Assembly: GCA_963774865.1 (NCBI GenBank)
Contig: CAVZGU010000013.1
Location: 11,894 to 75,893, forward strand
Source of the DNA: an uncultured Gammaproteobacteria bacterium
GTDB lineage: Bacteria > Pseudomonadota > Gammaproteobacteria > Steroidobacterales > Steroidobacteraceae
Direction: 5' to 3'
DNA: 64,000 nucleotides
Of the stretch, positions 3,088 through 50,308 are shown one piece after another. Under the pieces are notes generated by a model. It had not been told where the DNA came from. It worked only from the letters and a program-made list of their open reading frames with translations, and ran no database searches. Numbering within the stretch: position 1 is the stretch's first letter; the number at the start of each line of letters is the position of its first letter. Both the position numbers and the translations under genes were made by a program.

Positions 3088-3189
3088 GGCCGTATTCTTT
3101 ATAGAACTCTGTTGGATGATGCTTCCCGGCGGTCATCATAGCCACAATCGCGGCTTTCGTGCAGCCGGCGCATACCCTAACATTCCGCA

Positions 3190-6578: not shown

Positions 6579-7486
6579 GGGGCTCGAGCACGCTCTGCGC
6601 GGCCGCAGTCTGCGCCGCGGCTCTTTGCCTGCCCTGCGCTCGGGCGTTCGCCTGGGGCGATGAAGGCCACGAGGTGATCGGGCTGATCGCGGACCACTAC
6701 CTCAGGCCGGCGGTTCGCCGGCGGGTGCAGGCCCTGCTCGAGGGCGACGAGTCGGGGCTCACGGCCAAGGACATCGCGCACGAGGCGACCTGGGCGGACA
6801 AGTACCGCGATTCGGACCGCAACTCCGCCGGGGTCCGCTACGCGCAAACGCGCGGCTGGCATTTCGTGGATCTCGAACTGGCGGGAGCCGACATCCGCCG
6901 CGCCTGCTTCGGCCGGCCTGCACTGGCGCCCGGGACCGACGCGTCCGCGGGCCCCTCGCAGGACTGCGTGATCGACAAGATCGACGAATTCACCGCCGAG
7001 CTTAAGGATCCCGGCACCGACGAGCGGGAGCGCCGTCTCGCGCTGCAGTTTTTGCTGCATTTCGTCGGCGATGTGCACCAGCCGCTGCACGCGAGCGACG
7101 ATCACGACCAGGGCGGAAACCGCAAGATCGCGAGCGCGCCCGGAATCGGCGCCGACAATCTGCACCATGACTGGGACACCGAATTCGTCGCGCGCCTGGG
7201 AAAGGACGCAGCCGACATCGCGGCGCGGCTGATCGCCCGCATCACCGCCGCAGAGCGCGCGCGCTGGTCCGCCGGCACGCCCGCGGAGTGGGCCATGGAA
7301 ACCTACGATGTGGCAAAATCGCACGCCTATGGCCTGCTGCCGCCGGCGGATTCGTGGAATCGCTACGCGCTTTCCGCTGCCTATGTGGCCGATGCGACCG
7401 CGGTGACGGCCGAGCAGCTCAGCAAGGCCGGCGTGCGCCTTGCGTTCGTGTTGAATCAGTCGCTGCGCCAGGAGCCCGCCCGATGA
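6575..7486 (+). CDS. S1/P1-family zinc nuclease, secreted
   Basis: GTG at 6575 overlaps the TetR stop (GTGA). Signal peptide, then the mature N-terminus WGDEGHEVIGLIADHYL. Motifs HFVGDVHQPLH and NLHHDWDT match remembered S1/P1 zinc-ligand motifs. Confidence 0.8.
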   Translation: MRGSSTLCAAAVCAAALCLPCARAFAWGDEGHEVIGLIADHYLRPAVRRRVQALLEGDESGLTAKDIAHEATWADKYRDSDRNSAGVRYAQTRGWHFVDLELAGADIRRACFGRPALAPGTDASAGPSQDCVIDKIDEFTAELKDPGTDERERRLALQFLLHFVGDVHQPLHASDDHDQGGNRKIASAPGIGADNLHHDWDTEFVARLGKDAADIAARLIARITAAERARWSAGTPAEWAMETYDVAKSHAYGLLPPADSWNRYALSAAYVADATAVTAEQLSKAGVRLAFVLNQSLRQEPAR

Positions 7487-7596
7487 CGGTCACGCCAAAA
7501 GTCACTCCGTGCCTGTGCGGCAAGATCGACATCGCTCGCCTGCTCAAGACCTACGCGCGGCACGCCTGAGACCGCACATCAGGTTAGAATGCGAGC

Positions 7597-7764
7597 ATGG
7601 AATCCAGGATCGGCACAGAAGCTCAGGCAGCGCAGCTGCTCGCCACGTTGCGGCTAACGCCCGAGGCGCGACTGGATGCGTTCCTGGAACACTGTCGACT
7701 CATGATGGCGCTCTTTCAGGAAGGCCAGCGCCTGCAAGACCGCGCGCGGCGCCGAAGCGAGTGA
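7597..7764 (+). CDS. 55-aa ORF, possible antitoxin-like partner of the downstream nucleotidyltransferase-fold protein
   Basis: ATG at 7597 to TGA at 7762-7764, translating MESRIGTEAQAAQLLATLRLTPEARLDAFLEHCRLMMALFQEGQRLQDRARRRSE. It is below the ORF-track size cut-off. Its stop overlaps the next start (GTGA). Confidence 0.4.
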   Translation: MESRIGTEAQAAQLLATLRLTPEARLDAFLEHCRLMMALFQEGQRLQDRARRRSE

Positions 7765-8318
7765 GAACGCAGCGAGCCGGCGAATCGGCGCTCCTGTTGC
7801 TCGATGCAGTTGCCGTACTGGCTGCTGAAGGCATCGAGTACGCCGTGATAGGTGCAATGGCCGCGTCGGTACATGGAGTCGTGCGCGCAAGTCTAGATGC
7901 GGATGTGGTCATGTCGTTGGCGTCGCATCGGCTGAGCGATTTGGCGCAGCGTTTTGTTGCCGCCGGTTTCGATACGCAGAGCCGGTACGGAGACGCGGAT
8001 GATCCCATTGCTGCAATGCTTGTTTTGACGGATCGGCATGCAAATCGAGTTGACCTCCTGGTCGGCATACGGGGGCTGGAATTTGAGGCATTCGCCCGGA
8101 CCATCGAGGTCCCGTTTCACGGTCAGTTACTCAAAGTAGTCGGCCGCGAGGACTTCATTGCCATGAAGATCTTCGCCGGCGGTCCGCAAGATCTGTTGGA
8201 CGCGCGCAATGTGCTCGCGGCTGCCGGCGAAGACTTGGATATGTCTCTGCTCCGACGATTGAGTTCGCGCTACGGTCAGCATGCAATCAAGTCCTTGGAC
8301 TCGATTCTTTCGAAATAG
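7761..8318 (+). CDS. Nucleotidyltransferase-fold protein of unknown function
   Basis: GTG at 7761 is in the frame of ORF 7509..8318. LLLLDAVAVLAAEGIEYAVIGAMAASVHGVVRASLDADVV resembles small MNT/AbiEii-like nucleotidyltransferases. Confidence 0.55.
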   Translation: MRTQRAGESALLLLDAVAVLAAEGIEYAVIGAMAASVHGVVRASLDADVVMSLASHRLSDLAQRFVAAGFDTQSRYGDADDPIAAMLVLTDRHANRVDLLVGIRGLEFEAFARTIEVPFHGQLLKVVGREDFIAMKIFAGGPQDLLDARNVLAAAGEDLDMSLLRRLSSRYGQHAIKSLDSILSK

Positions 8319-8324
8319 CATTTC

Positions 8325-10409
8325 ATGAGCGCGACTTCGCACGGCCTGTGGCTCGGCCTGGACACCGGCGGCACGTATACCGACGCGGTGCTGCTCGCCG
8401 ACGGCGCGGCGCGTCATCGCGAGCGCAAAGGCGCTGACCACCCCCTGGGATCTTGCGATCGGCATCGGTCAGGCGATCCGCGCGGTGCTCGGCATTCTGG
8501 CGGGCGGCGCGCACGGCGCCAGCCGCGCAGAGGTGAGCCTCGTGTCCGTGTCGACCACGCTCGCCACCAATGCCGTGGTCGAACACCGCTTCAGCCCCGT
8601 GTGCACGCTCGTGATCGGTTTCGACGAGGCCATGGTCGAGCGCTCGGGTCTCAAGCGCCACCGCGACGGCATGGTGGCGCGCATTCCGGGCGGCCACACC
8701 GCGACCGGCGAGGAATCCGAGGCGCTGGACGAGGCCGCCGTCGAGCGCGCGGTGCGCGAGTACGGGGCCCGCGTCGAAGCGTTCGCGGTCGCCGCCAATT
8801 TCTCGGTGCGCAATCCGTCGCATGAGCTGCGGGCGCGCCGCATCATCCGCGCACTGTCGCCGAAGCCGGTGACCTGCGCGCACGAATTGAGCTCGAAGCT
8901 CGATGCGCCGCGCCGCGCGCTCACCGCCGCGTTGAACGCGCGGCTCACGCCGCAGATCCGCCATCTCATCGAGGCGCTCGGCCGAGTGCTGGTCGAGGAG
9001 TCGATCGATGCGCCGCTGATGATCGTCAAGGGCGACGGTTCGCTGATGAAGGCCGAGGTGGCGCTCGAGTATCCGGTCGAGACCATCCTGTCGGGTCCGG
9101 CGGCGAGCGTCGTGGGCGCGGGATTTCTCACCGGGCTCGAGGACTTCGTGGTCTCCGACATGGGCGGCACCACCACCGATATCGCGGTGGTCGCCGGCGG
9201 CCGGCCCGCTGATCCGCGCCGAGGGCGCGCTGGTCGGCGGCTGGCGCACCATGGTCGAGGCGGTCGACGTGCGCACCAGCGGTCTCGGCGGCGACAGCGA
9301 GGTGCATTTCGACCGGCAGCACCGCCTGCGCGTCGGTCCGCGCAAGGCCATGCCGCTGAGCCTGCTCGCGCAGCGCTTCCCGTCGACGCTCGCGCAGCTG
9401 CGCTCGATCGCAGAGCTCGAGCGCCTGCCGGACCATGCGCGACGCAATTTGCCTTCCGCAATCCCGATCGCGCACCGCCCGAGCATCTGTCGGCGCTCGA
9501 GCGCCGGGTGTGGGACGCCCTGGACCTCGAGCCCAAGCCACGTATCGACCGTGGTGCGCAACGCGTCGGGTCTCGAGGCGCTGCGGCGCCTCGCCGATGC
9601 CGGGCTCGCCACGCTCGCGGCCTTTACGCCGAGCGATGCCATGCACGTGCTCGAGCGGCAGCAGGGATGGTGCGCGCGAGGCGGCCGAGTGCGGTGCGCG
9701 GATTCTCGCCACCGAGGAGCGCAACGCGCGCGCGGCATCCGCGGCCGCCTCGCGCGCGGGAGATCTGCGAACGCACCTATGAACACGTGGTGCGCGAGAC
9801 GCGGCGCGGGTGCTGCTCGCCGCGGCCTTGGCGCACGATCCCGGACTCGAGGCGCGCGCGGGCCGCTGGGGCGTGCTCGGCGACCGGCTCATCGAGGAGG
9901 TCGTGGCCGGCCAGCCGCTTCTCGACTCTGCTGCATGCCACGCTCGGGCTCGCGCGGCCGCTGGTCGCCATCGGCGCGCCGGTCGGGGCCTATTATCCCG
10001 AGGTGGCGCGCCGGCTCGGCGCGCAGCTGTCGATTCCGGAGCACGCGGCGGTGTGCAACGCCGTCGGTGCGGTCGCGGGCGTGGTCTCGCAGACGGTCGA
10101 GATCCTGGTCAACCAGCCGACCTTCAAGGTTTTCCGAGTGCACGATCCGGCGGGCAGCCGAGGATTATCCGGATCCCGAGCCCGCGCTCGAGCATGCGCG
10201 AGCGCGTGTCGCGCGAACTCGCGCTCGCGGCGGCGCGCCGCGCCGGCGCGGCCGATCCGCACGTCGAGACGAGCGTGAGCGAAAAGCTCGCGCACGTCGG
10301 GCGCGGGCAGCTGATTATCTGGCCGAAGCGGTGGCGCGCTCGACCGCGACCGGCCGCCCGTTCGCCGGCCACATCGGCGCGTGCGCGACGCCGAGCGCGC
10401 ATCGGATAA
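8325..10409 (+). pseudogene. Hydantoinase/oxoprolinase-family protein, multiply frameshifted
   Basis: The N-terminus is MSATSHGLWLGLDTGGTYTDAVLLADG. Later segments appear in all three frames (VSVSTTLATNAVVE, SDMGGTTTDIAVVAGGRP, MVEAVDVRTSGLGGDSEVHF, LVAIGAPVGAYYPEVARRLGAQLSIPEHAAVCNAVGA). I count at least 8 frame changes. The first is at about 8408. The 3' end is approximate. Confidence 0.7.
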
Positions 10410-10517
10410 AGGCATACCGCGCTCGGCGGCATATCGAAAAGGCATACGACTGTCGCTGCGGAAATCGCGCGGGCACGCGAGCCGCGGCGCGCGCGATGCT
10501 TCCCTATAATCGGCTGC

Positions 10518-12084
10518 ATGAAACAACCCGACGAGACGCTCGGCCGCCGCAGCCGGCGCCGCCCCGGAGCCGCCGAGGTCAGCCATGCGGTGTTCGACCG
10601 CACGCGGCCCTACCGCCATCTGCGCAATCCGTTCGAGCCGCTGAAGGTGTTCTCGGACGATCAGGTCGCCGCCATCCACGAGGCGGCGCTCATCGATGCT
10701 CGAGACGCAGGGCATGAAGGTGCTGTCGGCGGATGCGCGCGTGCGCTACGCCGCAACGCCGGCGCAGCGGTCGACGAGGCGACGCAGATCGTGCGCCTCG
10801 ACCGCGGGCTCGTCGGCCGCCTCGCTCGCGACCGCGCCGCACGACATCACGCTGCACGCCGTCGACCCGGAGCGCAACGTGCCGCTCGTCGAAGGGCTGC
10901 GTCGCCTTCGCGCCGACCTCCGGTCCGCCGAACATCATGGATACGGCGCGCGGCCGGCGCGCCGGAACGTTCGAGGACTTCTGCAACCTGATGAAGCTGT
11001 GCCAGAGCTTCGAGGTGATCCACGTGCTCGGCGGCGCGACCGAGCCGCAGGACGTTCCGGTGCACGTCCGCCATCTGGAGGTGACGCGCGCGCAGCTCAT
11101 GCTGTGCGACAAGATGCCGTTCATCTTCTCGCGCGGCCACGGGCAGGTCGCCGACAACTTCGAGCTGATCCGCCTCGCGCACGGCATCTCGCCCGAGGAG
11201 TTCCGCTCGCGTCCCTACACCTACACCATCATCAACACCAACTCGCCGCTGCAGCTCGACATTCCGATGGCGGACGGCATCATCGATTTCGCCGCCGCCG
11301 GCCAGGTGCTCGATCATCACGCCGTTCACGCTGGCCGGCGCGATGGCGCCGGTGACGATCGCGGGCGCGCTGACCCTGGCGCACGCCGAGGCGCTCGCCG
11401 GCCTCACGCTCGCGCAGATCGTGCGGCCCGGCGCGCCGATCGTGTACGGCAGCTTCACCTCGAACGTCGACATGAAATCCGGATCGCCGGCCTTCGGCAC
11501 GCCGGAATACGTCAAGGCGGCGTTCGGCGCCGGCCAGCTGGCGCGCTTCCTCGGGCTGCCGTGGCGCTCATCGAACGCCACCGCCTCGAACATCCCCGAC
11601 GCGCAGTCCGCCTACGAATCGCAGATGAGCCTGTGGGGCGCGCTGTTCGGCGGCTGCAATTTCGTGCTGCACGCGGCCGGCTGGCTCGAGAGCGGGCTGA
11701 CCACCTCGTACGAGAAGTTCATCCTCGACATCGAGATGCTGCAGATGTTCGCCGAGGTGTTCCAGCCGGTCGGCGCCGCGCCCGCCGATCTCGCGCTCGA
11801 GGCGGTTGCCGAGGTCGGCGCCGGGCGGGCATTTCTTCGGCTGCGCGCACACGATGGAGCGCTATCGCAGCGCCTTCTACGCGCCGCTGGTCTCCGACTG
11901 GCGCAATTCCGGCAGCTGGGCCGACGACGGCGCGCAAGACCGCGACCGAGCGCGCCAGCGGCATCTGGCAGGGCACGCTTGCAGCGTTATGTCGCGCCGA
12001 CGCGCGATCCGGCCGTCGTCGAGGCGCTCGATGCGTATGTCGCGCGGCGCAAGGCCGAAGGGCGGCGCGCCGCCCGTGACCTGA
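10518..12084 (+). pseudogene. MttB-superfamily (trimethylamine methyltransferase family, non-Pyl type) methyltransferase, copy 1, multiply frameshifted
   Basis: Family-typical segments are spread over three frames: YRHLRNPFEPLKVFSDDQVAAIHEAAL, FEDFCNLMKLCQSFEVIHVLGG, TIINTNSPLQLDIPMADGIIDFAAAGQ, MAPVTIAGALTLAHAEALAGLTLAQIVRPGAPIVYGSF, GGHFFGCAHTMERYRSAFY. At least 9 frame changes. Confidence 0.85.
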
Positions 12085-12218
12085 GCATGTCGCATCTGGG
12101 CATGCCGCCGTCGCGATATCACAAGTCCCCGGGCCGGTGCGGACTTACCATGGCGTGCTGATGCGAGGACTGCGTAAGCTACGGTGGCTGCTCGCAAAAA
12201 TAACCCCTGGAGAGCTAG

Positions 12219-12928
<710 letters not shown>

Positions 12929-12935
12929 AGCGCAG

Positions 12936-13556
12936 GTGCGCGACGCCGTGGCCAGACCGGCCGAGGCCGGTGCTGGTCATCGCCTGCGGCGCGCTGGCGC
13001 ACGAGATCACGGCGCTGAGGCGCGCCAACGGCTGGGATCGAGCTCGACGTGCGCTGCCTGCCGCGCCGAGCTGCACAACCGGCCCGAGCAGCATCCCCGC
13101 CGCCGTGCGCGCGCTGATCCGATCGCTCGCGCTGCCACTACCGGTCGATCTTCGTCGCCTACGCCGACTGCGGCACCGGCGGGCTGCTCGACGCGGTGCT
13201 CGCGGAGGAGGGCGTCGAGCGCATCCCGGGCGCGCACTGCTATGAGTTCTTCGCCACCGGGCCCGGTGTTCGCGGCGCTGGCCGAGGCCGAGCCCGGCAC
13301 GTTCTATCTCACCGATTTCCTGCTGCGGCATTTCGAGCGCCTGGTGATCCGCGGGCTCGGGCTCGATCGGCATCCGGAGCTGTTCGCGAGCTACTTCGGC
13401 AATTACCGCAAGCTCGTGTATCTGGCGCAGGCGCCGAGCGCCGGCGCGCTGCGAGCAGGCGCGCGCGATCGCCGCGCGCATGGGGCTCGACGTTCGAGTA
13501 CCGCGACGACCGGCTACGGCACGCTGGCGACGAGCCTCGAGCGGCGCGCGGCGTGA
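12936..13556 (+). pseudogene. DUF1638-like protein, multiply frameshifted
   Basis: Segments PVLVIACGALAHEITALRRANGW, EEGVERIPGAHCYEFFATGP and GTFYLTDFLLRHFERLVIRGLGLDRHPELFASYFGNYRKLVYLAQ lie in different frames. This matches my memory of the DUF1638 proteins that accompany MttB/corrinoid clusters. Confidence 0.6.
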
Positions 13557-13599
13557 ACGCGATGCGCGGTCGAGGCGCAGCGCATGCGGAGGCCGTCGC

Positions 13600-13945
13600 A
13601 TGGCGTCGCTGATCGTCATTTCCTGGCGCGACATCCCGGCGCAGGTCATCGTCAAGCGCGGCCGCGAGACGGCGAAGGTGCAGCTCTCGCAGCGCTTTCA
13701 GGAGGCGGTCGATCGCGCCGCGATGCGCGCCGGCAAGGGCAGCTCGGATGCCTATCTCGCCGACTGGCAGCGCAGCGCGCCGCGCCCGTGCGGCGATGAC
13801 CTGCAGGCCGAGGCCGACGCCGAGGCGGCGCGCCTCGAGGCGCAGTTACACGCGACGAGGACCTCGAGCGGCTGATCCGCGCCAAGGGCCTGGACGCGAC
13901 TCGCGGCGCGTCCGATTCCGGCCGCCGCGCCGCCGAGTCTCCTGA
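13600..13945 (+). pseudogene. Small conserved protein (family usually annotated 'virulence factor') of MttB/corrinoid clusters; C-terminal part frameshifted
   Basis: ATG at 13600 gives MASLIVISWRDIPAQVIVKRGRETAKVQLSQRFQEAVDRAAMRAGKGSSDAYLADW. The continuation DEDLERLIRAKGLD is in another frame. The 3' end is uncertain. Confidence 0.5.
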
Positions 13946-14454
13946 TGTACTCGCGTCAGCCTCTGGTCGGTGCGCCATGCGCGCGGCCTGAACGCATTCT
14001 ATCGCGGCTTCGAGCGCGTGCTGGTGCGCATGCACGGCGCTGTTCCGCGCGCTCGGCTACGAGCGCATCGAGCGGCCGGTGGCGGCGGTCGAGCAAGGCC
14101 GTCAAGGGCGCTGCTGTTCGACTGCCGCATGTGCGGCCAGTGCGTGCTCAGCTCGACCGGCATGTCCTGCCCGATGAACTGCCCGAAGACCCTGCGCAAC
14201 GGCCCCTGCGGCGGCGTGCGCGCCGACGGCAACTGCGAGGTCAAGCCGGAGATGCGCTGCGTCTGGGTCGAGGCCTATCGCGGCAGCCGAGCGCATTCCC
14301 GGCGGCATCGAGGCGATGCGCCAGGTGCAGTCGCCGGTCGACCAGCGCCTGCAGGGCCGCTCCTCGTGGCTGCGGGTGGTGCGCGAGCGCACCCGAAGCC
14401 GCCGGCCGCGCGGCGCGCGCCCGCGAAGGCGGCAGCCCGAAGGCGGCGCCATGA
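13945..14454 (+). pseudogene. Methylenetetrahydrofolate reductase C-terminal-domain (Cys-rich) protein, frameshifted
   Basis: LFDCRMCGQCVLSSTGMSCPMNCPKTLRNGPCGGVRADGNCEVKPEMRCVWVEAYRGS sits in one frame and SPVDQRLQGRSSWLRVVRER in another. The terminal TGA (14452-14454) overlaps the next ATG (ATGA). At least 4 frame changes. Confidence 0.7.
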
Positions 14455-15476
14455 GATTCGAGGACGAGCCGGTGCCCGGCTATCCGCTGCCGATCCTGCC
14501 CGGGCACACCTCGCCGGGCCGCTTCGAGCGCGTGCTGCGCGCCGGCGGCTTCGCGGTCACCACCGAGCTGGCGCCGCCGGATTCGGCCGACCCGGAGGAT
14601 GTGTACAAGCGCGCGCGGGTGTTCGACGGCTACGTCGATGCGATCAACGCGACCGACGGCAGCGGCGCCAACTGCCACATGTCGAGCCTCGCGGTGTGCG
14701 CGCTGCTGACGCGCGTCGGCTATGCGCCGATCATGCAGATCTCCTGCCGCGACAAGAACCGCATCGCGATCCAGGGCGACATTCTCGGCGGCGCCGCGAT
14801 GGGCGTGTGCAACATGCTGTGCCTGACCGGCGACGGCGTGCAGGCGGGCGATCATCCGCAGGCGAAGCCGGTGTTCGATCTGGATTGCGTGTCGCTGCTC
14901 GAGATCGCGCGCACGCTGCGCGACGAGCACCGCTTTCAGAGCGGCCGCAAGATCAGCTTCGCGCCGCGCGTGTTTTTCGGCGCCGCCGAGAATCCCTCGG
15001 CGCTGCCGCACGAGTGGCGCGCGCTGCGCCTGGCCAAGAAGGTCGCCGCCGGCGCGCAGTTCATCCAGACGCAGTACTGCTACGACCTGCCGCTGCTGCG
15101 CGCCTTCATGGACGCAGGTCGAGGCGCTCGGGCTGCTCGGCAAGGTCTTCATCCTCGTCGGCGTCGGTCCGCTGCGCTCGGCGAAGACGGCCGAATGGAT
15201 GCGCAAGAACGTGCCCGGCATGCACGTCCCCGATGCCGTCATCGAGCGCCTCGCCGGCGCGCAGGATCAGGCGCGCGAAGGCCGCAACATCTGCGTCGAG
15301 CTCGATTCAGGAGATCCGCGAGATCCGCGGCATCAGCGGCGTGCACATCATGGCCTACCGGCAGGAAGAGTCGGTGGCCGAGATCGTCGACCGCTCCGGC
15401 GTGCTCCGAGGCCGCGCTCCCTGGTATCCCGGGCGCGACGATGCCCGAACCCGCTTCTCAAAGGACAGCATCATGA
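14451..15476 (+). pseudogene. Methylenetetrahydrofolate reductase (MetF-like), frameshifted
   Basis: A long good segment runs MRFEDEPVPGYPL...FAVTTELAPPDSADPEDVYKRARVFDGYVDAINATDGSGANCHMSSLAVCALL...IQTQYCYDLPLLRAFMDA. It then changes frame (MRKNVPGMHVPDAVIERLAGAQDQAREGRNICVEL; EIRGISGVHIMAYRQEESVAEIVDRSGVL). At least 3 frame changes. Confidence 0.75.
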
Positions 15477-16432
15477 CCGATACCGTCATCAGTTCCGCCA
15501 CCAAGGAGGTCGTCATCGGCTTCGATCGGCCGTTCGTCATCATCGGCGAGCGCATCAATCCGACGGGGCGCAAGATCCTGGCCGCCGAAATGGCCGCCGG
15601 CGACTTCAGCCGCGTCGAGGCCGATGCGCGCGCCCAGGTCGAGGCCGGGCGCGCACATGCTCGACGTCAATGCCGGCATTCCGCTGGCCGACGAGCCGGC
15701 GATCCTCGCGCGCGCCGTCCAGCTGGTGCAGTCGATCACCGACGTGCCGCTGTCGATCGATTCGTCGATCGTCGCCGCGCTGCGAGGCCGGGCTCGCGGT
15801 CTACAAGGGCAAGGCGCTGGTCAATTCCGTGACCGGCGAGGAGGAGCGGCTCGAGATCGGTGCTGCCGCTGGTCAAGAAATACGGCGCGGCGGTGATCGC
15901 GATCTCGAACGACGAGACCGGCATCTCGGAGGATCCGGACGTGCGCTTCGCGGTGGCGAAGAAGATCGTCGAGCGCGCGATGGATCACGGCATTCCCGCC
16001 GTGCGACGTCGTGGTCGATCCGCTGGTGATGCCGATCGGCGCCATCAATCAGGCGGGCGTGCAGGTGCATGCGCCTGGTGCACCGGCTGCGCACCGAGCT
16101 CAAGGTCAACACCTCCTGCGGCGCCTCGAACGTCAGCTTCGGGCTGCCGAATCGCAACGGCATCAACAGCGCGTTTCTGACCATGGCGATCGGCGCGGGA
16201 CTGACCTCCGCCATCACCAATCCGCTGCACGTCGAGGTGGTGCAAGGCGTGCATGGGCGCCGACGTCATGATGGGCCACGATCCGGATTGCGCGCGCTGG
16301 ATCCGGCGCTTCCGCGAGGCGCCGCCGGCTGCCGCCGCCCGGCACGGCCGGCGCCGGCAGAGGCGCCGCGCGGCCGCCGCGAAGGCGGTCATCGCCGGCG
16401 GCCGGCCTGAGCGCGCGGTCGAATGCACATGA
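15473..16432 (+). pseudogene. Methyl-H4folate:corrinoid methyltransferase (pterin-binding, MtrH/AcsE-like), frameshifted
   Basis: Segments MTDTVISSATKEVVIGFDRPFVIIGERINPTGRKILAAEMAAGDF; MLDVNAGIPLADEPAILARAVQLVQSITDVPLSIDSS; LVKKYGAAVIAISNDETGISEDPDVRFAVAKKIVERAMDHGIP; LKVNTSCGASNVSFGLPNRNGINSAFLTMAIGAGLTSAITNP lie in alternating frames. At least 5 frame changes. Confidence 0.75.
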
Positions 16433-18465
16433 CGACTCGCGATCCGCTCGTCGTCTTCATGCCTTCCGGCAAGCGCGGACGCTTTGCCGGTGGGCACGCC
16501 GCTGCTGCAGGCGGCGCGCAGCCTGGGCGTGGACATCGATTCGGTCTGCGGCGGCCGCGGCGCTGTGCGGGCGCTGCCAGGTGCTGGTCGCGGAGGGCGA
16601 GTTCGCCAAGCACGGCGTGCACCTCCTCGAGCGCGAGCCTGTCGCCGTTCAGCGAGCCGGAGATGCGCTTCTCGCGCCGCGCGCCGCTCGCGGCAGGGCG
16701 GCGCCTGTCGTGCTCGGCGCGCGTCGCAGGCCGACGTGGTCATCGACGTGCCCGCGAGCAGCCAGGTGCATCGCCAGGTGGTGCGCAAGGAGGCCGATGC
16801 GCGCGCGATCGAGCTCAATCCGGTGGTGCGTCTGCACTACGTGCAGGTGAAGCAGCCGGACATGCACGATCCGTCCGGCGACCTGCGCCGGCTGTTCGAG
16901 GCGCTGGAAGCGCGAATGGAGCCTGAAGGATCTCACCTGCGATCTGTCCGTGCTGCAGGGGCTGCAGCCGGCGCTGCGCGCGGGCGGCTGGCAGGTCACG
17001 GTGGCGGTGCACGCCGAGAAGCAGATCATCGGCGTCTGGCCGGGGCTGCACGAGCGGGCCTTCGGCCTCGCGGTCGACGTCGGCTCCACCACGATCGCCG
17101 CGCATCTGTGCGACCTGCGAGCGGCGAAGTGGTCGCCTCCGCGGGCGTCATGAATCCGCAGATCCGCTTCGGCGAGGACCTGATGAGCCGCGTCTCCTAT
17201 TCGATGATGAATCCCGGCGGCGCCGCGCTGATGACCGCAGCGGTGCGCGAAGCGCTCTGCGAGCTCGCGGCGGACGTGGCGCGCAGCGCCGGCGTCATCG
17301 CACGAGGACATCCTCGAGGCGACGCTGGTCGGCAATCCGATCATGCATCACCTGCTGCTCGGCATCGATCCGGTGGAACTCGGCGGCGCGCCGTTCGCGC
17401 TCGCCGTCGATCACTCGCTCACGCTGCGGGCGAATGTCATCGACTTCAAGCTGCACCGCAACGCGCGCATCTACGTGCTGCCGTGCATCGCCGGCCACGT
17501 CGGCGCCGATGCCGCGGGCATGGTGCTCGCCGAGCGTCCGGACCTTGCCGACGAGATGACGCTGCTGGTCGATGTCGGCACGAACGCCGAAATCGTGCTC
17601 GGCAACCGCCAGCGGCTGCGTCGCCTGCTCGAGCCCGACCGGCCCCGCGTTCGAGGGCGCGCAGATCAGCTGCGGCCAGCGCGCGGCGCCCGGCGCGATC
17701 GAGCGCGTGCGCATCGACCGCGAGACGCTCGAGCCGCGCTTCAAGGTCATCGGCTCCGACCTGTGGTCGGACGAGCCCGGCTTCGAGGAGGCGACCGCGG
17801 CGAACCGGCATCACCGGCGTATGCGGCTCGGGCATCATCGAGGTGATCGCCGAGATGTACCTTGCCGGCATCATCAATCAGGACGGCGTGCTCGACGGCC
17901 GCCTGGCCGCGCGCACGCCCGCGCATCGTCGCGAACGGCAGGACGTTCGCCGTATGTGCTGCATCGGCGGCGAACGGTCGAGATGAAGATCACGCAGAAC
18001 GACGTGCGCGCGATTCAGCTGGCGAAGGCGGCGCTGTACGCCGGCGTCGCGCTGCTGATGGAGCGGCTCGGCATCGATCACGTCGATCGCATCCGCCTCG
18101 CCGGCGCCTTCGGCAGCCACATCGACGTCAAGTACGCGATGATTCTCGGCATGGTTCCCGACTGCGATCTGAAGCAGGTGCGCTCGGCCGGCAATGCGGC
18201 CGGAACCGGCGCGCGCATCGCGCTGCTCGATGCGACTTCACGCGGCGTGATCGAGACCCTGGTGCGGCGCATCGAGAAGGTGGAGACGGCGATCGAGCCG
18301 CGCTTTCAGCAGCACTTCGTCGAGGCGATGGCGATTCCGCACAAGACCGCGGCGTACCCGAACTTGCGCAAGGTAGTCGATTTGCCCGCGCCCAAGGAAT
18401 CCACCAGCCAGAGCGAAACGCGGGGCCGCCGGCCGCGCAGGCCGGAGGCGGCGAAAACGGAGTGA
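16429..18465 (+). pseudogene. Corrinoid reductive-activation protein (2Fe-2S ferredoxin domain plus ASKHA/DUF4445; RACo/RamA-like), multiply frameshifted
   Basis: The ATG overlaps the upstream stop (ATGA). The whole protein can be rebuilt by frame-hopping: VVFMPSGKRGRF / VGTPLLQAARSLGVDIDSVCGGRG / CQVLVAEGEFAKHGV / FGLAVDVGSTTIAAHLCDL / NPIMHHLLLGIDPVELGGAPF / LLVDVGTNAEIVLGN / TGITGVCGSGIIEVIAEMYLAGII. The intact C-terminus is KITQNDVRAIQLAKAALYAG... At least 10 frame changes; the last is near 17960. Confidence 0.8.
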
Positions 18466-19150: not shown

Positions 19151-19299
19151 GGAGAACGGCGCGGGCTCCGGTGCCGCCGCCTGCCGGCCTCCCGGCTGCT
19201 CTGGATATCCCTGGCCGACTCTTCGATTGTCACGCGCAAGCAATATTTGCGCTCATAAGGCACATACGAGTACTTTGTCTGGCAAAGTAACTTGGCGTC

Positions 19300-20395
19300 A
19301 TGCGAGCACATGCTGGGACGAATTTTGTGCACCCGATCGTGATCCGATTTGGCCGGCTCGGCGACATGGTTTTGCTGAGCCCTCTTTTGCATCTGCTGCA
19401 TCGCCGCTATCGCAATCCGTGCTGGCTGATCGGCTCGGGCCCATGGTCGATTCAGCTATATCGCGGACATCAAGACGTGGCGCGAATCTGGTCCTTGTTC
19501 GGGCGCCATACGCCACTTTTGCTCGGTCCTACCTGGTGGAGTGCGCTGTGGGCGCTGCGCCATAGCGGGAAGTCCCCGATCTACGTATGCGAAACTGCCG
19601 CATTCCGTCAATTGAACAGGATCAAGGGCCTGCTGGCCGTTGCCGGTGTCGCGCCGGAACGCTGTGTCTTCCTGCCGGAAGAGGATTTGACCGAAGCCAG
19701 CGGGCATCGGGTCGACCGTCTGCTGTGCTTCGGTAGACAAACGCCTTCCGCGCTGCAAGCGGCTCATTACCCCTCGCCAGAGGTCGACCCTGCACCACGA
19801 CTCAAGGTGCCGGAAGCGGATCGGCTGGAGTGCGACGCCTGGATCAGAGCCCGGGGTTGGTCGGGCCGGCCGATTGTCCTGGTGCAGCCCGGCAACCGGC
19901 GAAGCATGCGACGATATCGATGGCATCGAGACCGCATCGACGACAAAGCCTGGGCACTGTCGAAATGGTCCGAGCTGCTCCATTGCATTCACGAAACGTT
20001 GCCAAAGGCGCAAATTGTGCTCTGTGGATCGCGGCAGGAGCAGGCATTGACGCGTCGGATCCGCGATGCCACCGGGATTGACGCAGTGGTTGCATTGCCC
20101 TTGACCTTGTGCCGGCTGCTCGCGCTGTGTGAAGTTGCACACAGCATGAATATCGGTGGATACCGGGCCGGCCCACGTCGCGGCAGCGATGGGCTCACCG
20201 CTAGTCGTGCTATTTGGTAATAGCTCGCCGCGTCATTGGTTGCCGCGTAGTTTCTGCCGGGCACCGGTAATCGGACTGGGTGGAGCCCCGGGAGTTCGTC
20301 ACGTCGATCAAATTCCGGTGCACGCCGTATTCGACGCTTGGCGCTCGCTGCCTGCCGGTGGGCTGTGTTTCACGGCTGCGTCGTCTGGGCGATGA
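19300..20395 (+). pseudogene. Glycosyltransferase family 9 (heptosyltransferase-like), one frame change near 20155
   Basis: N-terminus IVIRFGRLGDMVLLSPLLHLL. The conserved C-terminal VDTGPAHVAAAMGSPLVVLFG continues in the frame of ORF 20156..20395. Confidence 0.7.
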
Positions 20396-23608: not shown

Positions 23609-23808
23609 GGTCGAACTCCCGATTTGTCCGAGGGTCGTCATTTTTGCGCCTGAGGCGCATTGCTTTGTGGATCAGTCCTGGCAGTATGGTCACTGTCGAT
23701 TCCAGCAGCTGATCAATTTGCGTCATGGACTTGTCATGACGCGCCATTTCAGGGCCGGGCCCAAGGGGCCACCGCCCAGGGGCGCTGCCCCAACGCGGCC
23801 GCCGCCCG

Positions 23809-25309
23809 TCATTCGGCAAAGGACATGAGCGTCGCTTGGCGCAAAGTGCGCGTCGACGAAATCGGCAAGGCCGTTCAAGGTGTCGTCGAGCGTGGGCGTC
23901 TGTCGCGCCGAAGAGCGGCGCGCATCACCGCCGAGCTCCTCGAACAGCCCGTGCGGATAGAGCGCGAGCGTCTGCCCGTGCTGCCAGCCGCAGATTGCTC
24001 GGGCAGCGCGCTGCCGCAGGCGCCGCGCGCGACTCGTGCGGGCGAGGCCGGCCGCGTCTTCCCCATGCCGGATCTCGTAGCCGTCGAAGGCGACGCCGCT
24101 CAGGGGCGCCCAGAAGCCCGTGAGCGGCAGCGAGTGTATGGCTGCGGTGCCGATAGCGCTTGTCGCCGCTGAAACTGCGTCGCGTACGGCAGCAAGACCC
24201 AGGCCGTGCGCCGCGCCCTCGACGCCGTGCGGATCGGTGAGGTCGCCTGCCCAGCATCTGCAGGCCGCCGCAGATCGCCGAGCGTCGGCTTGCCCGCCGC
24301 CGCGTGCGCGCGCGATCGCGGCGTCGAGCCCGGCTCGCGCAGCCAGGCGAGGTCCGCCGCCGACGTGCTTGGAGCCCGGGCAGGATCGATCAGGTCGGCG
24401 CCGTGCAATCTCGCCGGCTCGCGCGCCCAGCGCAGCTGCACGCCGCGGGACCTGCCGCAAGGGGCTGAACTCGTCGAGGTTGCTGATGTGCGGGTAGGCG
24501 ACGATCGCGGCGGTCGAGGCGCGCCGCCGGCGCACCGCGCGCCGGTGCGCCGGGCGTCGAAGACGCCGTCCTCCTCGGGCAGGCCGTGCTCGCGCCACAT
24601 CGGCAGCACGCGCGAGCGTGGGCACGCCGGTGAGCGTCTCGCAGCATCTGCGGGCCCGGGCGCCAGCAGCGCGGCGTCGCCGCGGAACTTGTTGAGCACG
24701 AAGCCGCGCACCAGCGCGCGGTGCTCGGCGGTCAGCAGCACCGATGGTGCCGTAGAGGTGGGCGAACGCGCCGCCGCGGTCGATGTCGGAGACGAGCAGG
24801 CGTCGCTGCGCTCGCGCGCTTCGCGCCACGCGCATGTTGACGATAGTCGGTGGCTGCAGGTTGATCTCGGCCGGCGAGCCCGCGCCCTCGATGACGACCA
24901 CGTCGTGCTCGGCCACGAGCTCGTCGAGCGCAGCGCGCGCACGGCCGGCCACAAGCTGCCGCGCTGCGCTCGCGCCACGGCCATGCGCGACAGGTCGTCG
25001 CGTCGACGCCGCCGAGCACGACCACCTGGCTGCGCGGTGTCGCGCTCGGGCTTGAGCAGCACCGGGTTCATGTCGCACGTCGGGCATCGCGCGCGCGCGG
25101 CGAGCGCCTGGAAGTACTGCGCGCTGCCGATCTCACCGCCCGGCCGCCGACGACGACGCGGCGTTGTTGCTCATGTTCTGCGCCTTGAACGGCGCGACCT
25201 TCAACCGTGGCGCGCATACCAGCGGCCAGCGCGGTGGCGAGCAAGCTCTTGCCGGCGCCGCTGGTCGTGCCGCAACCATGACGCGCGGGCTGGCCTGGAC
25301 GCCGCTCAT
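23809..25309 (-). pseudogene. cobQ: Cobyric acid synthase CobQ, multiply frameshifted
   Basis: ATG at 25309 is 1 nt after the btuD stop. The P-loop GTTSGAGKSLLATALA, then [49 protein letters not shown] and PYxxISNLDEF-type segments ([11 protein letters not shown]) occur in alternating frames. At least 8 frame changes, three of them in the first ~100 nt. The 3' end is approximate. Confidence 0.75.
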
Positions 25310-36464: not shown

Positions 36465-36472
36465 GCGCTTTG

Positions 36473-37171: not shown

Positions 37172-37214
37172 GTTGAAGATTCCTGCGACAACGATTGCGC
37201 GGCCATGATTCGGG

Positions 37215-38441: not shown

Positions 38442-38447
38442 CGGCCG

Positions 38448-44447: not shown

Positions 44448-45651
44448 ATGCGTCTATCGTCCATTCCTGCTGCGCGGTGGCTTTGCAGGGCGTCGCGGCT
44501 CGCGGTACTCGCGTCGCTCGCCGCGGCGGCGGCCTGCGGGGGCAAGGCCGCCGGGCCGCCGGCACCGCAGACGGTGGCGACGCTGACCATGCGGCCTCAA
44601 CCCACGTCGCTGACGCAGGAGTACCCGGCGCAGCTCGAGGCCTCGAACACCGTCGAGATCCGCCCGCAGGTCGTCTGGAATTCTCTACCGGCAGGCGGCG
44701 CTCGAGGGCGCGCCGGTCAAGCACGGCGAAGTGCTGTTCGAGATCGATCCGCAGCCTTACGCCGCCGCACTCGCCCAGGCGCAGGCGGGGCTCGCCCAGG
44801 CGCACGCGGCAGAAGCGCAGGCCACGCGCGATTTGGCCCGTGCGCGCCCGCTGACGGCGATCGACGCGTTGAGCCAGAGGGAGCTCGATGCGGCGATCGC
44901 CGCCAATGCCTCGGCGCAGGGCCTGGTGAAGGCCGCGGAGGCGGCGGTGAAGACGGCGGAGCTCAACCTCAATTACACCCAGGTCCGCTCGCCCATCGAC
45001 GGTGTGATGAGCCGGGCGCTGATCCGCATCGGCGGAGTGGTCACCGCGTACACAACGCTGCTGACCACCGTCTACCAGACCGATCCGATGTATGCGAACT
45101 TCAGCGTCGGGGAGCAGCGCCTGCTGCAGGTGCAGCGCGAGCTGGGCCGTCCGCTCGACCAGCACAATCCCAGCCAGCGCGAGTTCCGGATCCTGCTTGC
45201 CGACGGCAGCGAGTACGAGCTTCCCGGAAAGATGAATTTCATCGACGCCGCCGTCGACCTGCGCACCGACACGCTGCGCGCTGCGCCTCACGGTGCCGAA
45301 CCCGAAGCAGTTCCTGCACGCCGGACAGTACGTCAAGGTGGTCGGTCGCGACGCGCGAGCGCCCAAACGCGCTGCTCGTTCCGCAGCGCGCGGTGCAGGT
45401 GCTGCAGGACAAGCACTTCGTCTGGATCGTGGACCAGCTCCGGCAAGGCGACAGCAGCGCGACGTCAAGATGGGCCAGCAGCAGGGCAGCGACTGGGTGG
45501 TCGAGGGGGCCTCGCGCCGGGCGACGTGGTGGTCGTGGACGGCACGCAGAAGCTCAAACCCGGCACGCCGGTGCGGGCGGAACCCCTGCGCGAGACGCCG
45601 GTGCGGGCGGCGCCGACCGGCCCGCCCGCGGCGGGGCCGCGCGCCTCATGA
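44448..45651 (+). pseudogene. RND efflux periplasmic adaptor (MexA/AcrA family), multiply frameshifted
   Basis: Lipoprotein N-terminus [30 protein letters not shown]. Segments [23 protein letters not shown]...[51 protein letters not shown] and [18 protein letters not shown] are in different frames. At least 5 frame changes. Confidence 0.8.
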
Positions 45652-48600
45652 GCAATTTCTTCATCGACCGGCCGATCTTCGCGACGGTGCTGGCGATCGT
45701 CATCACGCTCGCGGGCACCATCGCGTTTCTGCTGCTGCCGGTGGCGCGCTTCCCGCAGATCACGCCGCCGATCGGTAGTCGTCGCGGCGACCTTCCCCGG
45801 CGCCGATGCCTCGACCATCGAGCAGTCGGTGGCGGCGCCGATCGAGACGCAGGTGAACGGCGTTCCGAACATGATCTACATGGACTCGAAGAGCTCCAAC
45901 GACGGCTCCTACACGCTCAACGTCACCTTCGAGGTCGGCACCGACCAGGACATCGCCGCGGTCGACGTGCAGAATCAGGTCGCCATCGCCCAGCGGCAGC
46001 TGCCTGCCGGACGTGCTGCGCCAGGGCGTGTCCATCACCAAGCGCCAGCCGCAGCCGCTGATGTTCATGCGCCATCGAGGCGACCGATCCGCGCTACGAC
46101 TACCTGTTCCTCAGCAACTTCGCGACGCTGCAGGTGTACGACTCGCTGGCGCGCGTCCGCGGCGTCGGCCAGGTGCAGCAGTTCGGCGCGCGCGACTACG
46201 GCATGCGCATCTGGCTCGACCCGGGCAAGATGGCGCGCCTCGGCGTCACCACCCAGCGACATCACGCAACGCCATCAACGAGCAGAACGTGGTCGCGCCG
46301 GCCGGCATCGTCGGCGCCGAGCCGGCGCCGCCCGGCCAGCAGATGACCTACACGGTGACCGTGCACGGGCGCCTGAGCAAGCGTGGAGGAGTTCGAGAAC
46401 ATGGTGCTGCGCGCCGGCCCCAACGGCGCGATCGTGCGGCTGCGCGACGTCGCCCGCATCGAGCTCGCCGCCACCGACTACACGCGCTCGAGCCGGCTGA
46501 ACGGCCAGGCCGGTGGCGCTGCTCGGCATCTATCAGCTGCCGGACGCGAATGCGCTCGAGGTCGAGCAAGCAGGTGCGCGCCGACGCTCGAGACAGCTGT
46601 CGCACCGCTTCCCGCCCGGCATTCGCTACGACCATCCCGCTCGACACCTCGGAGTTCGTCCGCGAGTCGATCAAGGAAGTCGAGATCACGCTGTTCATCG
46701 CCGCGGCGCTGGTGCTGCTGGTCGTGTTCCTGTTCCTGGAGAGCTGGCGCGCGACGCTGATTCCGATGCTGGCGGTGCCGGTGTCGCTGCTCGGCACCTT
46801 CACGCATCTTCGTCGGCCCTCGGCTTCTCGATCAACACGCTGACGCTGTTCGCGCTGGTGCTCGCGATCGGCATCGTGGTCGACGATGCGATCGTCGTGG
46901 TCGAGGCGGTGACCGAGAAGATGGAGGAGCAAGGGCCTCGATCCGCGCGCAGCCACGCGCGCGGCGATGGCGGACGTGTCGAGCCCGGTGATCGCGATCG
47001 CGCTGGTGCTGGCCGCGGTGTTCGTGCCGGTGGCGTTCCTCGGCGGCCTGACCGGCCAGTTCTACAAGCAGTTCGCGCTGACGCTGTCGGTGTCGGTGCT
47101 GATCTCGGCGCTCATCGCGCTGACCTTCACGCCGGCGATGTGCGCGCTGCTGCTTGAAGCCGCGCTCGGAGACCGAGCCGCCGCGCGGCCTGCTCGGGCG
47201 CGGTTTCGCCGCCTTCAATCGTGGTTTCGCGCGAGCCACCAAGCAGTACACGGGCACCGTGCGCCGCGCGATTCGCCGCTCGGCGATCGCGCTCGGCGTG
47301 TTCGGCGCGATCATCGTCGCCGCTGGCGCTGCTGGTGTGGCAGCGGCCCGGCGGGTTCCTGCCCGAGGACGACCAGGGCTACCTGCTCTGGTTACGCAGC
47401 TGCCGCCCGGCGCATCGCTCCAGCGCACCGAGGCGGTGCTCGAGAAGATCGCGCGACGATCGTCAGCAAGCAGCCGGAGGTGCACGAGCATGCTCGCCAT
47501 CACGCGGGCTCAACCTGCTCGCTCAGGTCAACGACGCCGTACACCGGCTCCGGATTCATCCCGTTGAAGCCCTGGTCGCAGCGGCCGGGCGCGGCAGAGC
47601 TCGGCGCAGGCGCTGATCCGAGCGGCTGTACAAGCTGCTCGGCCGATCAAGGAGGCCAATGTCGTGGTCGTCGCGCCGCCGGCGATCCCCGGCATCGGCC
47701 AGGCGGGCGGCTTCGAGTTCATGCTCGCGGACACCTCCGGCGGCAGCCTCGAGAACTTCCCGCGGCAGATCCAGGATTTCCTCGCCGCAGGCCAACAAGC
47801 GCCAGGAGCTCGCGCGCGTCTCGACCCAGTTCAACGACTCGCGTGCCGCAGATCGAGTACGTGGTCGACCGCGACCGGGCCAGTGCGCTCGGCATCCCGA
47901 TCTCGGACATCTTCTTCGCGCTGCAGACCTTCCTCGGCGGCAACTACATCAACGACTTCAATCTGTTCGGGCGCACATTCCGCGTCACCGCCGAGGCCGA
48001 GGGTTCGGCGCGCACGCTGCCCGATGCGGTCAACGCGCTCTACGTGCGCACGCAGGCCGGCGACATGGTGCCGCTGTCCTCGCTGGTGTCGATCAAGCCG
48101 ACGCCGCGGCCCGGCCTACATCGAGCGCTACAACGTGTACCGGGCGGCGACCATCAACGGCGCGCCGGCTCCCGGGTACAGCCAGGGCGAGGCGATCGAT
48201 GCGATGGAGGATCGCTCGCCAAGGCGCTGCCCGGCAACCTCACCTACGACTGGACCGGGTCGGTGTTCCAGGAGAAGCGCGCGGGCAGCCAGGCGCCTTA
48301 TATCTTTGCGATGGCGCTGGTGTTCGTGTTTCTGGTGCTCGCCGCGCAGTACGAGAGCTGGGTCGTGCCGTTCGCGGTCATCCTGTGCATCCCGTTCGCC
48401 GTGTTCGGCGCGTTCCTCGGCCTGTCGCTGCGCGGCATGGCGAACAACATCTACGCGCAGGTCGGGCTGGTGATGCTGATCGGACTGGCGGCCAAGAACG
48501 CGATCCTGATCGTCGAGTTCGCGAGCCTGTCGCACGAGCGCGGCATGCCGATCATCGAGGCCGCGATCGACGGCGCGCGGCTGCGCCTGCGGCCGATCCT

Positions 48601-48860
48601 GATGACCTCGTTCGCGTTCATCCTGGGCGCGCTGCCGCTTGCGATCGCCACCGGCGCCGGCGCCAGGTCGCGCGCAGGTGCTCGGCACGACGGTGGTGTT
48701 CGGCATGATGGCCGCGACCATGATCGGCATCTTCATCGTGCCGGTTTTCTACGTCGTTCTGCAGGGCCTCGTCGACCGCTTCTCCAAATCGCACGGCCGC
48801 GCGACGCCCGCGCCCGCGGCCGGCACCGCGCCCGCGGCGGGCACTGAGCCCGAGGCATGA
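45648..48860 (+). pseudogene. RND inner-membrane transporter (AcrB/MexB family), multiply frameshifted
   Basis: Starts [41 protein letters not shown] and ends VLGTTVVFGMMAATMIGIFIVPVFYVVLQGLV. Dozens of family-typical segments alternate among the three frames. At least 15 frame changes. Confidence 0.85.
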
Positions 48861-50308
48861 AGACGTGGCTGTGCACGTGCGCGCTGCTCGCCGGCTGCGC
48901 CGTCGGGCCGGACTATCATCGGCCGCCGCTCGACGTGCCGGCGCACTACCGCGATGCCGCCCCGGCGGCGGCCGGTGGCGCCGGCGATGCGGCTTCATTC
49001 GGCGACAGCGGCTGGTGGGAGGTCTATTCGGACCCGGACCTGCAGGCGCTGCTCGCTACGGCGATCAAGAACAATTACGACGTGCGGATCGCGGTGGCGC
49101 GGATCGACGAGGCGCGCGCGCAGCTCGGCTCGACAGCGCATGAACTACCTGCCGCAGGTATCGGTCGATGCGGCGGGCCGGACGCACCAAGACCTCGCAG
49201 TACGCAGCTCCTGCCCGGCGTCCCGCGAATCAACAACGAGGCTCAGGTGCAGGTCCTGGCGTCCTACCAGATCGACCTGTGGGGGCAGCTGCGGCGCGCG
49301 ACCGAGGCGGCGCGCGCCAATCTGCTCGCGTCGCAGTACGCCAAGCGCGCCGTGACCGTGACCCTGGTGGCGTCGCGTCGCCAACGCCTATTTCGCGCTG
49401 ATCTCGCTCGACAGTCAGCTCGAGATCACGCGGCGCACGGTGGTCGAGCGCGAGAAGTTCCTGGAGCTCACTCACGCCCAGCACGAGCGCGGCTACGCGA
49501 CCGGACTCGACGTCGCCACCGCCGAAGCGGATCTGGCGGCCGCCCGCGCAACCGTCCCCGACCTCGAGCGCCGGATTGCGCAGACCGAGGACGAGATCAG
49601 CGTGCTGATCGGCAGCAATCCCGGGCCGGTCACTCGCGCGCACTATGGGGAAGCCGTGCCGGAAGCGCCGCCGCGGCCGCCGCCCGGCCTGCCGTCGCGA
49701 TTGCTGGAGCGGCGGCCGGACGTGGCGCAGGCCGAGCAGGCACTGGTGGCGGCCAACGCCGAAATCGGCGTGGCCAAGGCCGCGCTGTTTCCGAACATCT
49801 CGCTCACCGGCAGCGCCGGCTCGTTGTCGGTGCCGTTCGGCAATCTGTTCACCGCGCCGGCCGCCGAATGGAGCGCCGGCGTGGGCCTGATCCAGCCGCT
49901 GCTCAGCGTGCAGTCAAACCTCTATCAGGTCGAGCTCGCCGACGCGCGGCAAGCGCGAGGCGCTGTATCAGTACGAGAAGACATGTGCAGAGCGCCTTCC
50001 AGGATGTGGCCGATGCGCTGGTCGCCTACCAGAAATACGGCGAGCAGGAGCGCGAACAAGCGAGCCAGGTCGATGCGCTGCGGCGGGCGCGCGAGATCGC
50101 GCTGGCGCGATACCGGATCGGCTATGCCTCCTACTTCGATGTGATTCAGGCCGATCGCGACCTGTTCGCGGCGGAACTGGCGCTCGCCCAGGCGTATGCG
50201 GACAACCTGAGCGCACTGGTGCAGCTGTACTCGGCGCTTGGAGGCGGATGGCAGGAGCGTCCGGCCGTGACTGCCGCGCCGCCGCCGCCGGCGCGCCCGA
50301 CGCCGTGA
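48857..50308 (+). pseudogene. RND outer-membrane factor lipoprotein (NodT/OprM family), multiply frameshifted
   Basis: MKTWLCTCALLAGCAVGPDYHRPPLDVP (lipobox LAGC). Segments ASYQIDLWGQLRRATEAARA, GYATGLDVATAEADLA, PDVAQAEQALVAANAEIGVAKAALFPNISLTGSAG and YRIGYASYFDVIQADRDLF are in different frames. At least 6 frame changes. Confidence 0.8.

Follow-up and report, generated by a model that had tools for sequence, protein, structure and literature searches.

The frame breaks that run through a nine-gene corrinoid-methyltransferase operon at 8325-18465 of the window, as we call the whole 64,000-nucleotide stretch of DNA analyzed here, are very probably consensus errors of this metagenome-assembled genome rather than changes in the organism's own DNA, and the living cell most likely carries the operon intact. 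A preliminary description of this region had left two readings side by side, an assembly artifact and a real, recent pseudogenization. The first of these is borne out, since the indels are private to the assembly and missing from public contigs, essential genes show the same kind of damage, and selection on the operon is intact.

The identities of the nine genes, which are all co-directional, were established with Pfam on the intact operon of a relative (L004), which is collinear with the window. In the case of gene 1, the domains were assigned on the intact orthologue (L004:1417-3528) and then mapped to the window. Given with the number of frame-changing indels private to the window, the genes are as follows:

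Gene 1, 8325..10400 (3' end approximate), + strand: hydantoinase/oxoprolinase-like ASKHA protein (PF05378 + PF01968); 13 indels
Gene 2, 10518..12084, + strand: substrate:corrinoid methyltransferase of the MttB superfamily (PF06253), non-pyrrolysine type; 8 indels
Gene 3, 12219..12928, + strand: corrinoid protein (PF02607 + PF02310, B12-binding); 2 indels
Gene 4, 12948..13603 (start approximate), + strand: DUF1638 protein (PF07796); 8 indels
Gene 5, 13600..13945, + strand: small PF13769 protein; 1 indel
Gene 6, 13945..14454, + strand: DUF5981 protein (PF12225, MTHFR C-terminal-like); 5 indels
Gene 7, 14451..15476, + strand: methylenetetrahydrofolate reductase, MTHFR (PF02219); 2 indels
Gene 8, 15473..16432, + strand: pterin-binding methyltransferase (PF00809; methyl-corrinoid:tetrahydrofolate type); 6 indels
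Gene 9, 16429..18465, + strand: RACo-type reductive activase of corrinoid proteins (PF00111, PF17650, PF17651, PF14574); 11 indels, the last at ~17973

The intact L004 operon thus holds, in one cluster, a PF06253 methyltransferase without an in-frame TAG together with a B12-binding corrinoid protein, a pterin-binding methyltransferase and a reductive activase, that is, the parts by which an MttB-superfamily system is recognized. The nearest solved structures to the product of gene 2 are 4YYC and the MtgB entries 2QNE and 9YCE (E ~1e-91), and it is homology to these proteins that points to glycine betaine or another quaternary amine as the substrate. Judged from its sequence, the operon most likely mediates corrinoid-dependent methyl transfer from a quaternary amine (e.g. 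glycine betaine) to tetrahydrofolate, with MTHFR and the RACo activase alongside. Glycine betaine systems of this kind, MtgBCD with MetF2, RamA/RACo and DUF1638, have been described in Ruegeria pomeroyi and Desulfitobacterium hafniense (PMC12478193). They share with the present operon the MttB-family methyltransferase, the B12-binding corrinoid protein, the pterin-binding methyltransferase, an MTHFR paralogue, the reductive activase and DUF1638. By contrast, all parts are gathered here in a single nine-gene operon, in a Steroidobacteraceae-like gammaproteobacterium and in the company of a hydantoinase-like ASKHA gene, and the roseobacter homologs are only ~52% identical.

None of the nine genes is spared. 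When the indels of a MAFFT alignment are mapped to the genes, 56 private frame-changing indels fall inside gene bounds, so that the earlier count of at least 45 frame changes in nine consecutive genes was right, if slightly low. Over the entire aligned region of this five-way alignment of the window with its relatives, the window carries 64 private indels (50 of +1, 5 of +2, 3 of -1 and 2 of -2, the remainder being multiples of three), compared with 9 and 13 in the intact relatives L004 and L006. Sixty of these change the frame, about 56 of them within the genes, and the events of 1-2 bp comprise 55 insertions and 5 deletions. Consequently, the lesions are not well characterized as ±1 changes at very short runs: they are nearly all +1 insertions (50, against 3 of -1), of which 12 extend a run and 38 are solitary. 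Eight of the nine genes lie in 2-4 pieces; the coding phase in a GC3 phase plot switches at intervals of 100-800 bp from 8.4 to 18.0 kb, and a codon HMM cuts the zone into ~45 segments whose borders coincide with the indels derived from the alignment. The gene junctions are unharmed, as had been noted, with the 4-nt overlaps ATGA (14451, 15473 and 16429) and GTGA (18462) all present. Likewise, the observation that no nonsense codons appear after frame correction holds, as there are no in-frame stops once the private indels are removed; two apparent stops in gene 1 were dismissed, both lying upstream of the ATG at 8325.

Compared pairwise with its syntenic sister genome, G023 (93% DNA identity), the window shows its damage in three hot zones, for none of which a strand applies:

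Hot zone 1, 8404..17973: the operon; 76 positions with 1-2 bases more in the window than in G023, and 56 private frame-changing indels within genes
Hot zone 2, 23795..25159: putative cobQ; 44 extra bases in 1.36 kb, the same artifact
Hot zone 3, 44672..49985: putative RND efflux operon; ~40 extra bases, the same artifact

Only two such extra-base positions occur between 26 and 44 kb. The stretches that had been named as clean hold up: 25311-28046 and 32730-43440 have no extra-base positions relative to G023, and 28689-30740 has at most one indel of 1-2 bp, around kb 30, where the window lacks a base. In 2002-5319 there are two extra-base positions at ~3 kb, yet the ORF at 3190-5319 is open.

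Each of the nine genes runs in one frame in G023 as well as in four further relatives (L004, L006, L007 and L008). The window also differs structurally from G023 near the first zone, at 7561-8340 and 19156-20366, and we consider these differences genuine. Public contigs from four peat or soil runs (Logan) lack the extra base at every insertion site listed, at least 11 in number (9205, 10160, 10200, 11312, 15998, 16069, 16489, 16562, 16619, 16727 and 16912), and insert a T at 17118, the one private deletion listed. These contigs are built from short reads and are 95-99% alike to the window, and thus represent related populations and not the same strain. Among the public runs, none was found to hold the strain itself; the best 31-mer shares, both from one peat run, were 0.17 for the hot zone and 0.30 for the clean zone.

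The substitutions that can be polarized to the window's own branch (n=148) are distributed 25/15/108 over the three codon positions, and 95 synonymous changes stand against 21 non-synonymous ones. With this ratio and without a single stop after removal of the private indels, relaxed selection was not found on the window lineage, which answers the proposal to look for it in an alignment with orthologues. This weighs heavily on the view that the operon, the putative cobQ and the putative RND operon have recently become pseudogenes while their flanks remained under selection. Such a process would explain why the damage is confined to gene or operon units with clean neighbors, and the genuine structural differences to G023 nearby would sit well with it, but it would have to produce 56 frameshifts and no nonsense codon. 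It would also require ~0.4 private frame-changing indels per substitution (60 to 148) and a 50:3 excess of insertions, whereas bacterial pseudogenes show the opposite, a deletion bias. Furthermore, the same ladder of +1 steps disrupts the only valS gene and dnaE, the near relatives in four metagenomes are free of every insertion tested, and the inserted bases replicate neighboring alleles. We therefore regard pseudogenization as highly improbable. Still more remote, to the point of being barely conceivable, is the idea that the extra bases are real and bypassed by programmed frameshifting, transcriptional slippage or deletion-type RNA editing. The frames do read through perfectly when the extra bases are left out, as a decoding mechanism would need; however, the sites have no common slippery or homopolymer context (38 of the 50 inserted bases are solitary), they number ~60 in 10 kb and thousands in the genome, and they are missing from G023 and other relatives. 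No such bypass system is known in bacteria.

The damage extends over the whole genome, in which we count 3,462 frameshift-like transitions (2,647 insertion-like and 815 deletion-like), or 8.7 per 10 kb, versus roughly 1-2.3 per 10 kb at the loci of the intact relatives L004, L006, L007 and L008. They are unevenly spread, with 39% of the 5-kb bins containing 81% of them. The valS gene, present in one copy, takes 11 frame steps across at least seven pieces; dnaE, too, is split, while rpoB and rpoC are whole. With 17 contigs but only 63% of the markers, the assembly looks like a long-read assembly. Broken marker genes probably make its completeness appear lower than it is; relatives reach 90% or more.

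What kind of consensus error is at work is suggested by the inserted bases themselves. Only 24% of the +1 insertions (12 of 50) duplicate the neighboring base, where 56% would be expected by chance. In 32 of the remaining 38, the inserted base equals the base of another lineage at the adjacent alignment column, a number that none of 2000 shuffles reached (null mean 10.9, sd 2.8); the same test in zone 2 gave 16 of 20, against a null mean of 8.2 (P = 0.0005). The inserted bases are G/C-biased and match the alleles of more distant relatives, never those of G023. This repetition of alleles from neighboring columns is the mark of a consensus drawn from two merged haplotypes and, accepting that the breaks are an artifact, we consider such an origin probable. 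Reads of a second, more diverged haplotype, either of a co-occurring relative or of a strain with an imported allele, would have been pooled with those of the genome itself along some stretches the length of a gene or operon; at some of the differing sites, the consensus step would then write both alleles in succession, each time leaving a +1 insertion. A merger of this kind would account for four traits: insertions are in excess, they lie outside homopolymers, the inserted bases lean toward G/C, and the zones end at gene boundaries. It would also explain the restriction to particular operons, which had been put forward for pseudogenization and does not support it if the second haplotype was merged over these segments only.

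Plain platform noise in a single haplotype, through low depth or failed polishing (e.g. high-GC short-read drop-out), would yield an artifact as well, and low-coverage long-read bins are known to retain frameshift indels (PMC9262707). Event density indeed climbs steadily with GC content across the genome (Spearman 0.54): there are 0.8 events per 5 kb where GC lies below 58% and 14 where it lies at 70-72%. The three hot zones of the window are GC-rich. Yet composition is insufficient as the sole cause, and GC-driven drop-out was rejected in this role, because the stretch at 25.5-27.5 kb (GC 0.70-0.74) is free of events and that at 33-36 kb (GC ~0.68) is clean. Moreover, random errors would neither copy a neighboring alternative allele so often nor shun the extension of runs, and the zones have sharp borders near gene ends. 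Noise by itself is thus an unlikely explanation, although the rise with GC makes a composition-dependent error component possible beside the main cause. The preliminary description had suggested uncorrected or low-coverage reads; it was right about the artifact, but a mixed-haplotype consensus fits better, because most insertions extend no run and repeat the neighboring alternative allele.

It counts against the main reading that conservation across the genus predicts the zones poorly and inconsistently. The stretch at 30.9-32.6 kb is clean despite 80-81% identity in two relatives, and the putative cobQ of zone 2, only 73-74% identical in three relatives, has the densest errors. We rejected a near-identical paralogue within the genome as a source of the second haplotype, since no additional match to the operon there exceeds 71%. 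Alternatively, protein-guided frameshift correction may have repaired some genes only, but the clean zone is almost indel-free even between genes, which argues weakly against this. Returning to merged haplotypes, we may tentatively see in the hot zones a footprint of population structure, in which two diverged alleles coexist in the sampled peat community at these loci, the remaining genome being near-clonal; this seems to us a possibility somewhat short of even. The second allele would then branch outside the pair formed by the window and G023, because the inserted bases match distant relatives and never G023. If true, this would imply that Steroidobacteraceae-like species occurring together share alleles, or undergo gene-specific introgression, at the MttB system, the putative cobQ and the putative RND pump.

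The significance of these findings lies in annotation and data quality, not in biology. Taken at face value, the annotation of this species-representative genome would report the false loss of a quaternary-amine demethylation operon, a putative cobQ, a putative RND pump, valS and dnaE. The error has a recognizable signature, with +1 insertions next to variable sites that echo the alternative allele and crowd into zones the size of a gene. This signature lends itself to flagging and repairing such regions and helps to avoid false pseudogene calls in genomes from long-read metagenomes.

According to the literature, indels in a consensus give rise to frameshifts, and bins of low coverage call for polishing (PMC9262707). 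Such indels belong to long-read and metagenome-assembled genomes, above all where a single consensus collapses strains or related species. The present case shares with them that the indels are private to one assembly, that genes are fragmented genome-wide and that few marker genes are found (63%) although there are only 17 contigs. Likewise, two other relatives assembled into few contigs (G021 and G013) have 5-6 frame breaks in this operon, and many-contig relatives have none. The classic account of long-read consensus error stresses homopolymer deletions; here, by contrast, nearly all events are +1 insertions outside homopolymers, which stand next to variable sites, repeat the alternative allele and crowd into zones the size of genes or operons. 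With the decay of bacterial pseudogenes, the operon has in common its many frame breaks and their confinement to dispensable-looking operons, but it differs in having no stops, unrelaxed selection, a bias toward insertions, hits in essential genes elsewhere and lesions that are missing in near relatives.

The corrinoid-dependent methyltransferase operon on the + strand at 8325-18465 has orthologous regions in many genomes of the genus (81-92% DNA identity), and the relatives that bear it are mostly soil and peat MAGs labelled Steroidobacteraceae or Gammaproteobacteria. Its gene content was read by Pfam on the intact orthologous locus L004, as nine co-directional genes:

Gene 1: hydantoinase/oxoprolinase-like ASKHA protein
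Gene 2: MttB-family methyltransferase (PF06253, E = 1.7e-194)
Gene 3: corrinoid protein with both B12-binding domains
Gene 4: DUF1638 protein
Gene 5: PF13769 protein
Gene 6: DUF5981 protein
Gene 7: MTHFR
Gene 8: pterin-binding methyltransferase
Gene 9: RACo reductive activase

In the window, the reading frame hops throughout this operon, as the preliminary description had reported; this hopping is confirmed in the sequence, yet it is not a real biological feature. In a GC3 phase plot, the coding phase switches every 100-800 bp between 8.4 and 18.0 kb, and a codon-usage HMM trained on the source genome splits hot zone 1 (8404-17973) into about 45 segments, whose boundaries match the indel positions obtained by alignment. 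With the nine intact proteins as tblastn queries, eight of the nine genes are found in 2-4 pieces in the window; each of the nine proteins lies in one frame in the orthologous loci L006, L007 and L008 and in the syntenic sister genome G023. A five-way MAFFT alignment yields 64 private indels, found in the window but not in the aligned relatives (50 of +1, 5 of +2, 3 of -1, 2 of -2, the remainder multiples of three), compared with 9 in L004 and 13 in L006. Frame-changing private indels within the operon genes number 56 and spare no gene. The start/stop overlaps quoted in the same description are all found in the sequence.

Relative to G023, the window has one or two extra bases at 76 places in hot zone 1, at 44 in hot zone 2 (23795-25159) and at about 40 in hot zone 3 (44672-49985), and at only two between 26 and 44 kb. 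In the deposited sequence these zones are real, and so is the sharpness of their edges; divergence from G023 is 5-9% within them versus 2-4% in clean stretches. Genome-wide, event density correlates with GC (Spearman 0.54); GC is insufficient to explain the zones, given that 25.5-27.5 kb is free of events despite a GC of 0.70-0.74. The overlapping stretch 26001-28000 has an unusually high AT skew (0.22) at a GC of 0.70, and no indel errors.

G023 is collinear with the window and 93% identical, with all nine operon genes whole. The indel sites were compared with Logan contigs, 95-99% alike to the window, of four runs from peat or soil: these contigs have exactly one base fewer at 9205, 10160, 10200, 11312, 15998, 16069, 16489, 16562, 16619, 16727 and 16912, and restore the T at 17118, the site of a called private deletion. 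This is strong but not final evidence for an artefact, because the contigs represent related populations rather than the same strain. The same operon has five frame breaks in G021 (locus L003; mttB, DUF1638, pterin-binding and RACo genes) and six in G013 (L005; mttB, MTHFR, pterin-binding and RACo genes), both few-contig assemblies, and zero in many-contig relatives and G023. Frameshift-causing consensus indels are well described in long-read assemblies and low-coverage bins (PMC9262707).

The damage extends across the source genome G000 (17 contigs, 3.97 Mb, 62.95% of marker genes found), in which the window occupies C13:11894-75893 and the HMM counts 3,462 frameshift-like transitions (2,647 insertion-like, 815 deletion-like), or 8.7 per 10 kb; intact relatives' loci have roughly 1-2.3. 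They are strongly clumped (mean 4.4, variance 19 per 5-kb bin), 39% of the bins holding 81% of them. The only valS gene (G000:C2:394886-397544) lies in at least seven pieces, with an 11-step frame ladder of mostly +1, and dnaE (G000:C9:58580-61483) in at least three, with two TGA codons within one match; rpoB and rpoC (G000:C9:442679-450838) are whole, in a clean stretch. Since both valS and dnaE are indispensable to a cell, their broken state counts for an artefact.

The preliminary description had offered pseudogenisation as the alternative, to be checked by relaxed selection on frame-corrected genes. Selection is intact: no in-frame stops are left in the operon genes once private indels are removed, and the window's 148 polarised private substitutions fall 25/15/108 by codon position, with 95 synonymous versus 21 non-synonymous. 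Neutral decay cannot yield 60 frame-changing private indels in the alignment per 148 substitutions with such a selective pattern. Moreover, private indels of 1-2 bp comprise 55 insertions versus 5 deletions, whereas pseudogenes in bacteria are biased toward deletion, which argues for artefact rather than decay. We therefore reject pseudogenisation and retain the artefact half of that description, to which five lines of evidence point: the lesions are private, missing in independent data, accompanied by intact selection, biased toward insertion and part of genome-wide damage.

The insertions themselves suggest how the artefact arose. Only 12 of the 50 +1 insertions extend a run, against a chance expectation of 56%. 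In 32 of the 38 others, the inserted base equals another lineage's base at the adjacent column (null mean 10.9, sd 2.8; 0 of 2000 shuffles reach 32), and zone 2 has 16 of 20 such matches versus 8.2 expected (P = 0.0005). Inserted bases are G or C in 42 of 50 cases and match alleles of more distant relatives. Because they repeat the neighbouring alternative allele and the flanking bases always follow G023, the window holds both alleles in tandem at such sites. The simplest inference from the assembled sequence is that, along the hot-zone segments, the consensus blends in reads from a second haplotype that is more diverged, and that the consensus step sometimes retained both alleles. Merged haplotypes would account for why insertions are in excess, why they lack homopolymer context, why G and C prevail among the inserted bases and why the zones are gene-sized, and are consistent with the higher in-zone divergence from G023 and with the 328 sites where the window shares the outgroup allele versus 148 where it stands alone. 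The zones may mark operons with two diverged alleles coexisting in the sampled community, which is the sole biological interest left in them.

Other differences lie beside the operon. About 780 bp at 7561-8340, adjoining its upstream edge, are missing from G023, and a contig of the public metagenome run X1 skips this segment (joint 7474 to 8324); the difference is genuine. The ORF in this segment, at 7509-8318, weakly matches DUF6036, a nucleotidyltransferase family, with an E-value of 7.5e-4 that misses the Pfam cut-off. A 1.2-kb low-GC segment (0.58-0.63) at 19156-20366 may be a strain-specific insertion; it is missing from G023 and nearly uncovered by contigs at least 95% alike in four metagenomes (depth 0-2.4), and for its ORF at 19300-20220 the only match, to glycosyltransferase-9, is weak. 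In the S1/P1-nuclease gene (6218-7486), a 968-bp contig of run X5 covers 6509-7469 with six gaps; this flank nevertheless appears frame-intact, and the gaps may be multiples of three or genuine differences.

The earlier naming of the operon was right, because its parts list fits known systems and, among solved structures, 4YYC and the MtgB entries 2QNE and 9YCE come nearest. Corrinoid-dependent demethylation of glycine betaine, a quaternary amine, is described in Desulfitobacterium hafniense and Ruegeria pomeroyi (PMC12478193), and the operon's predicted parts list is the same as that of these systems.
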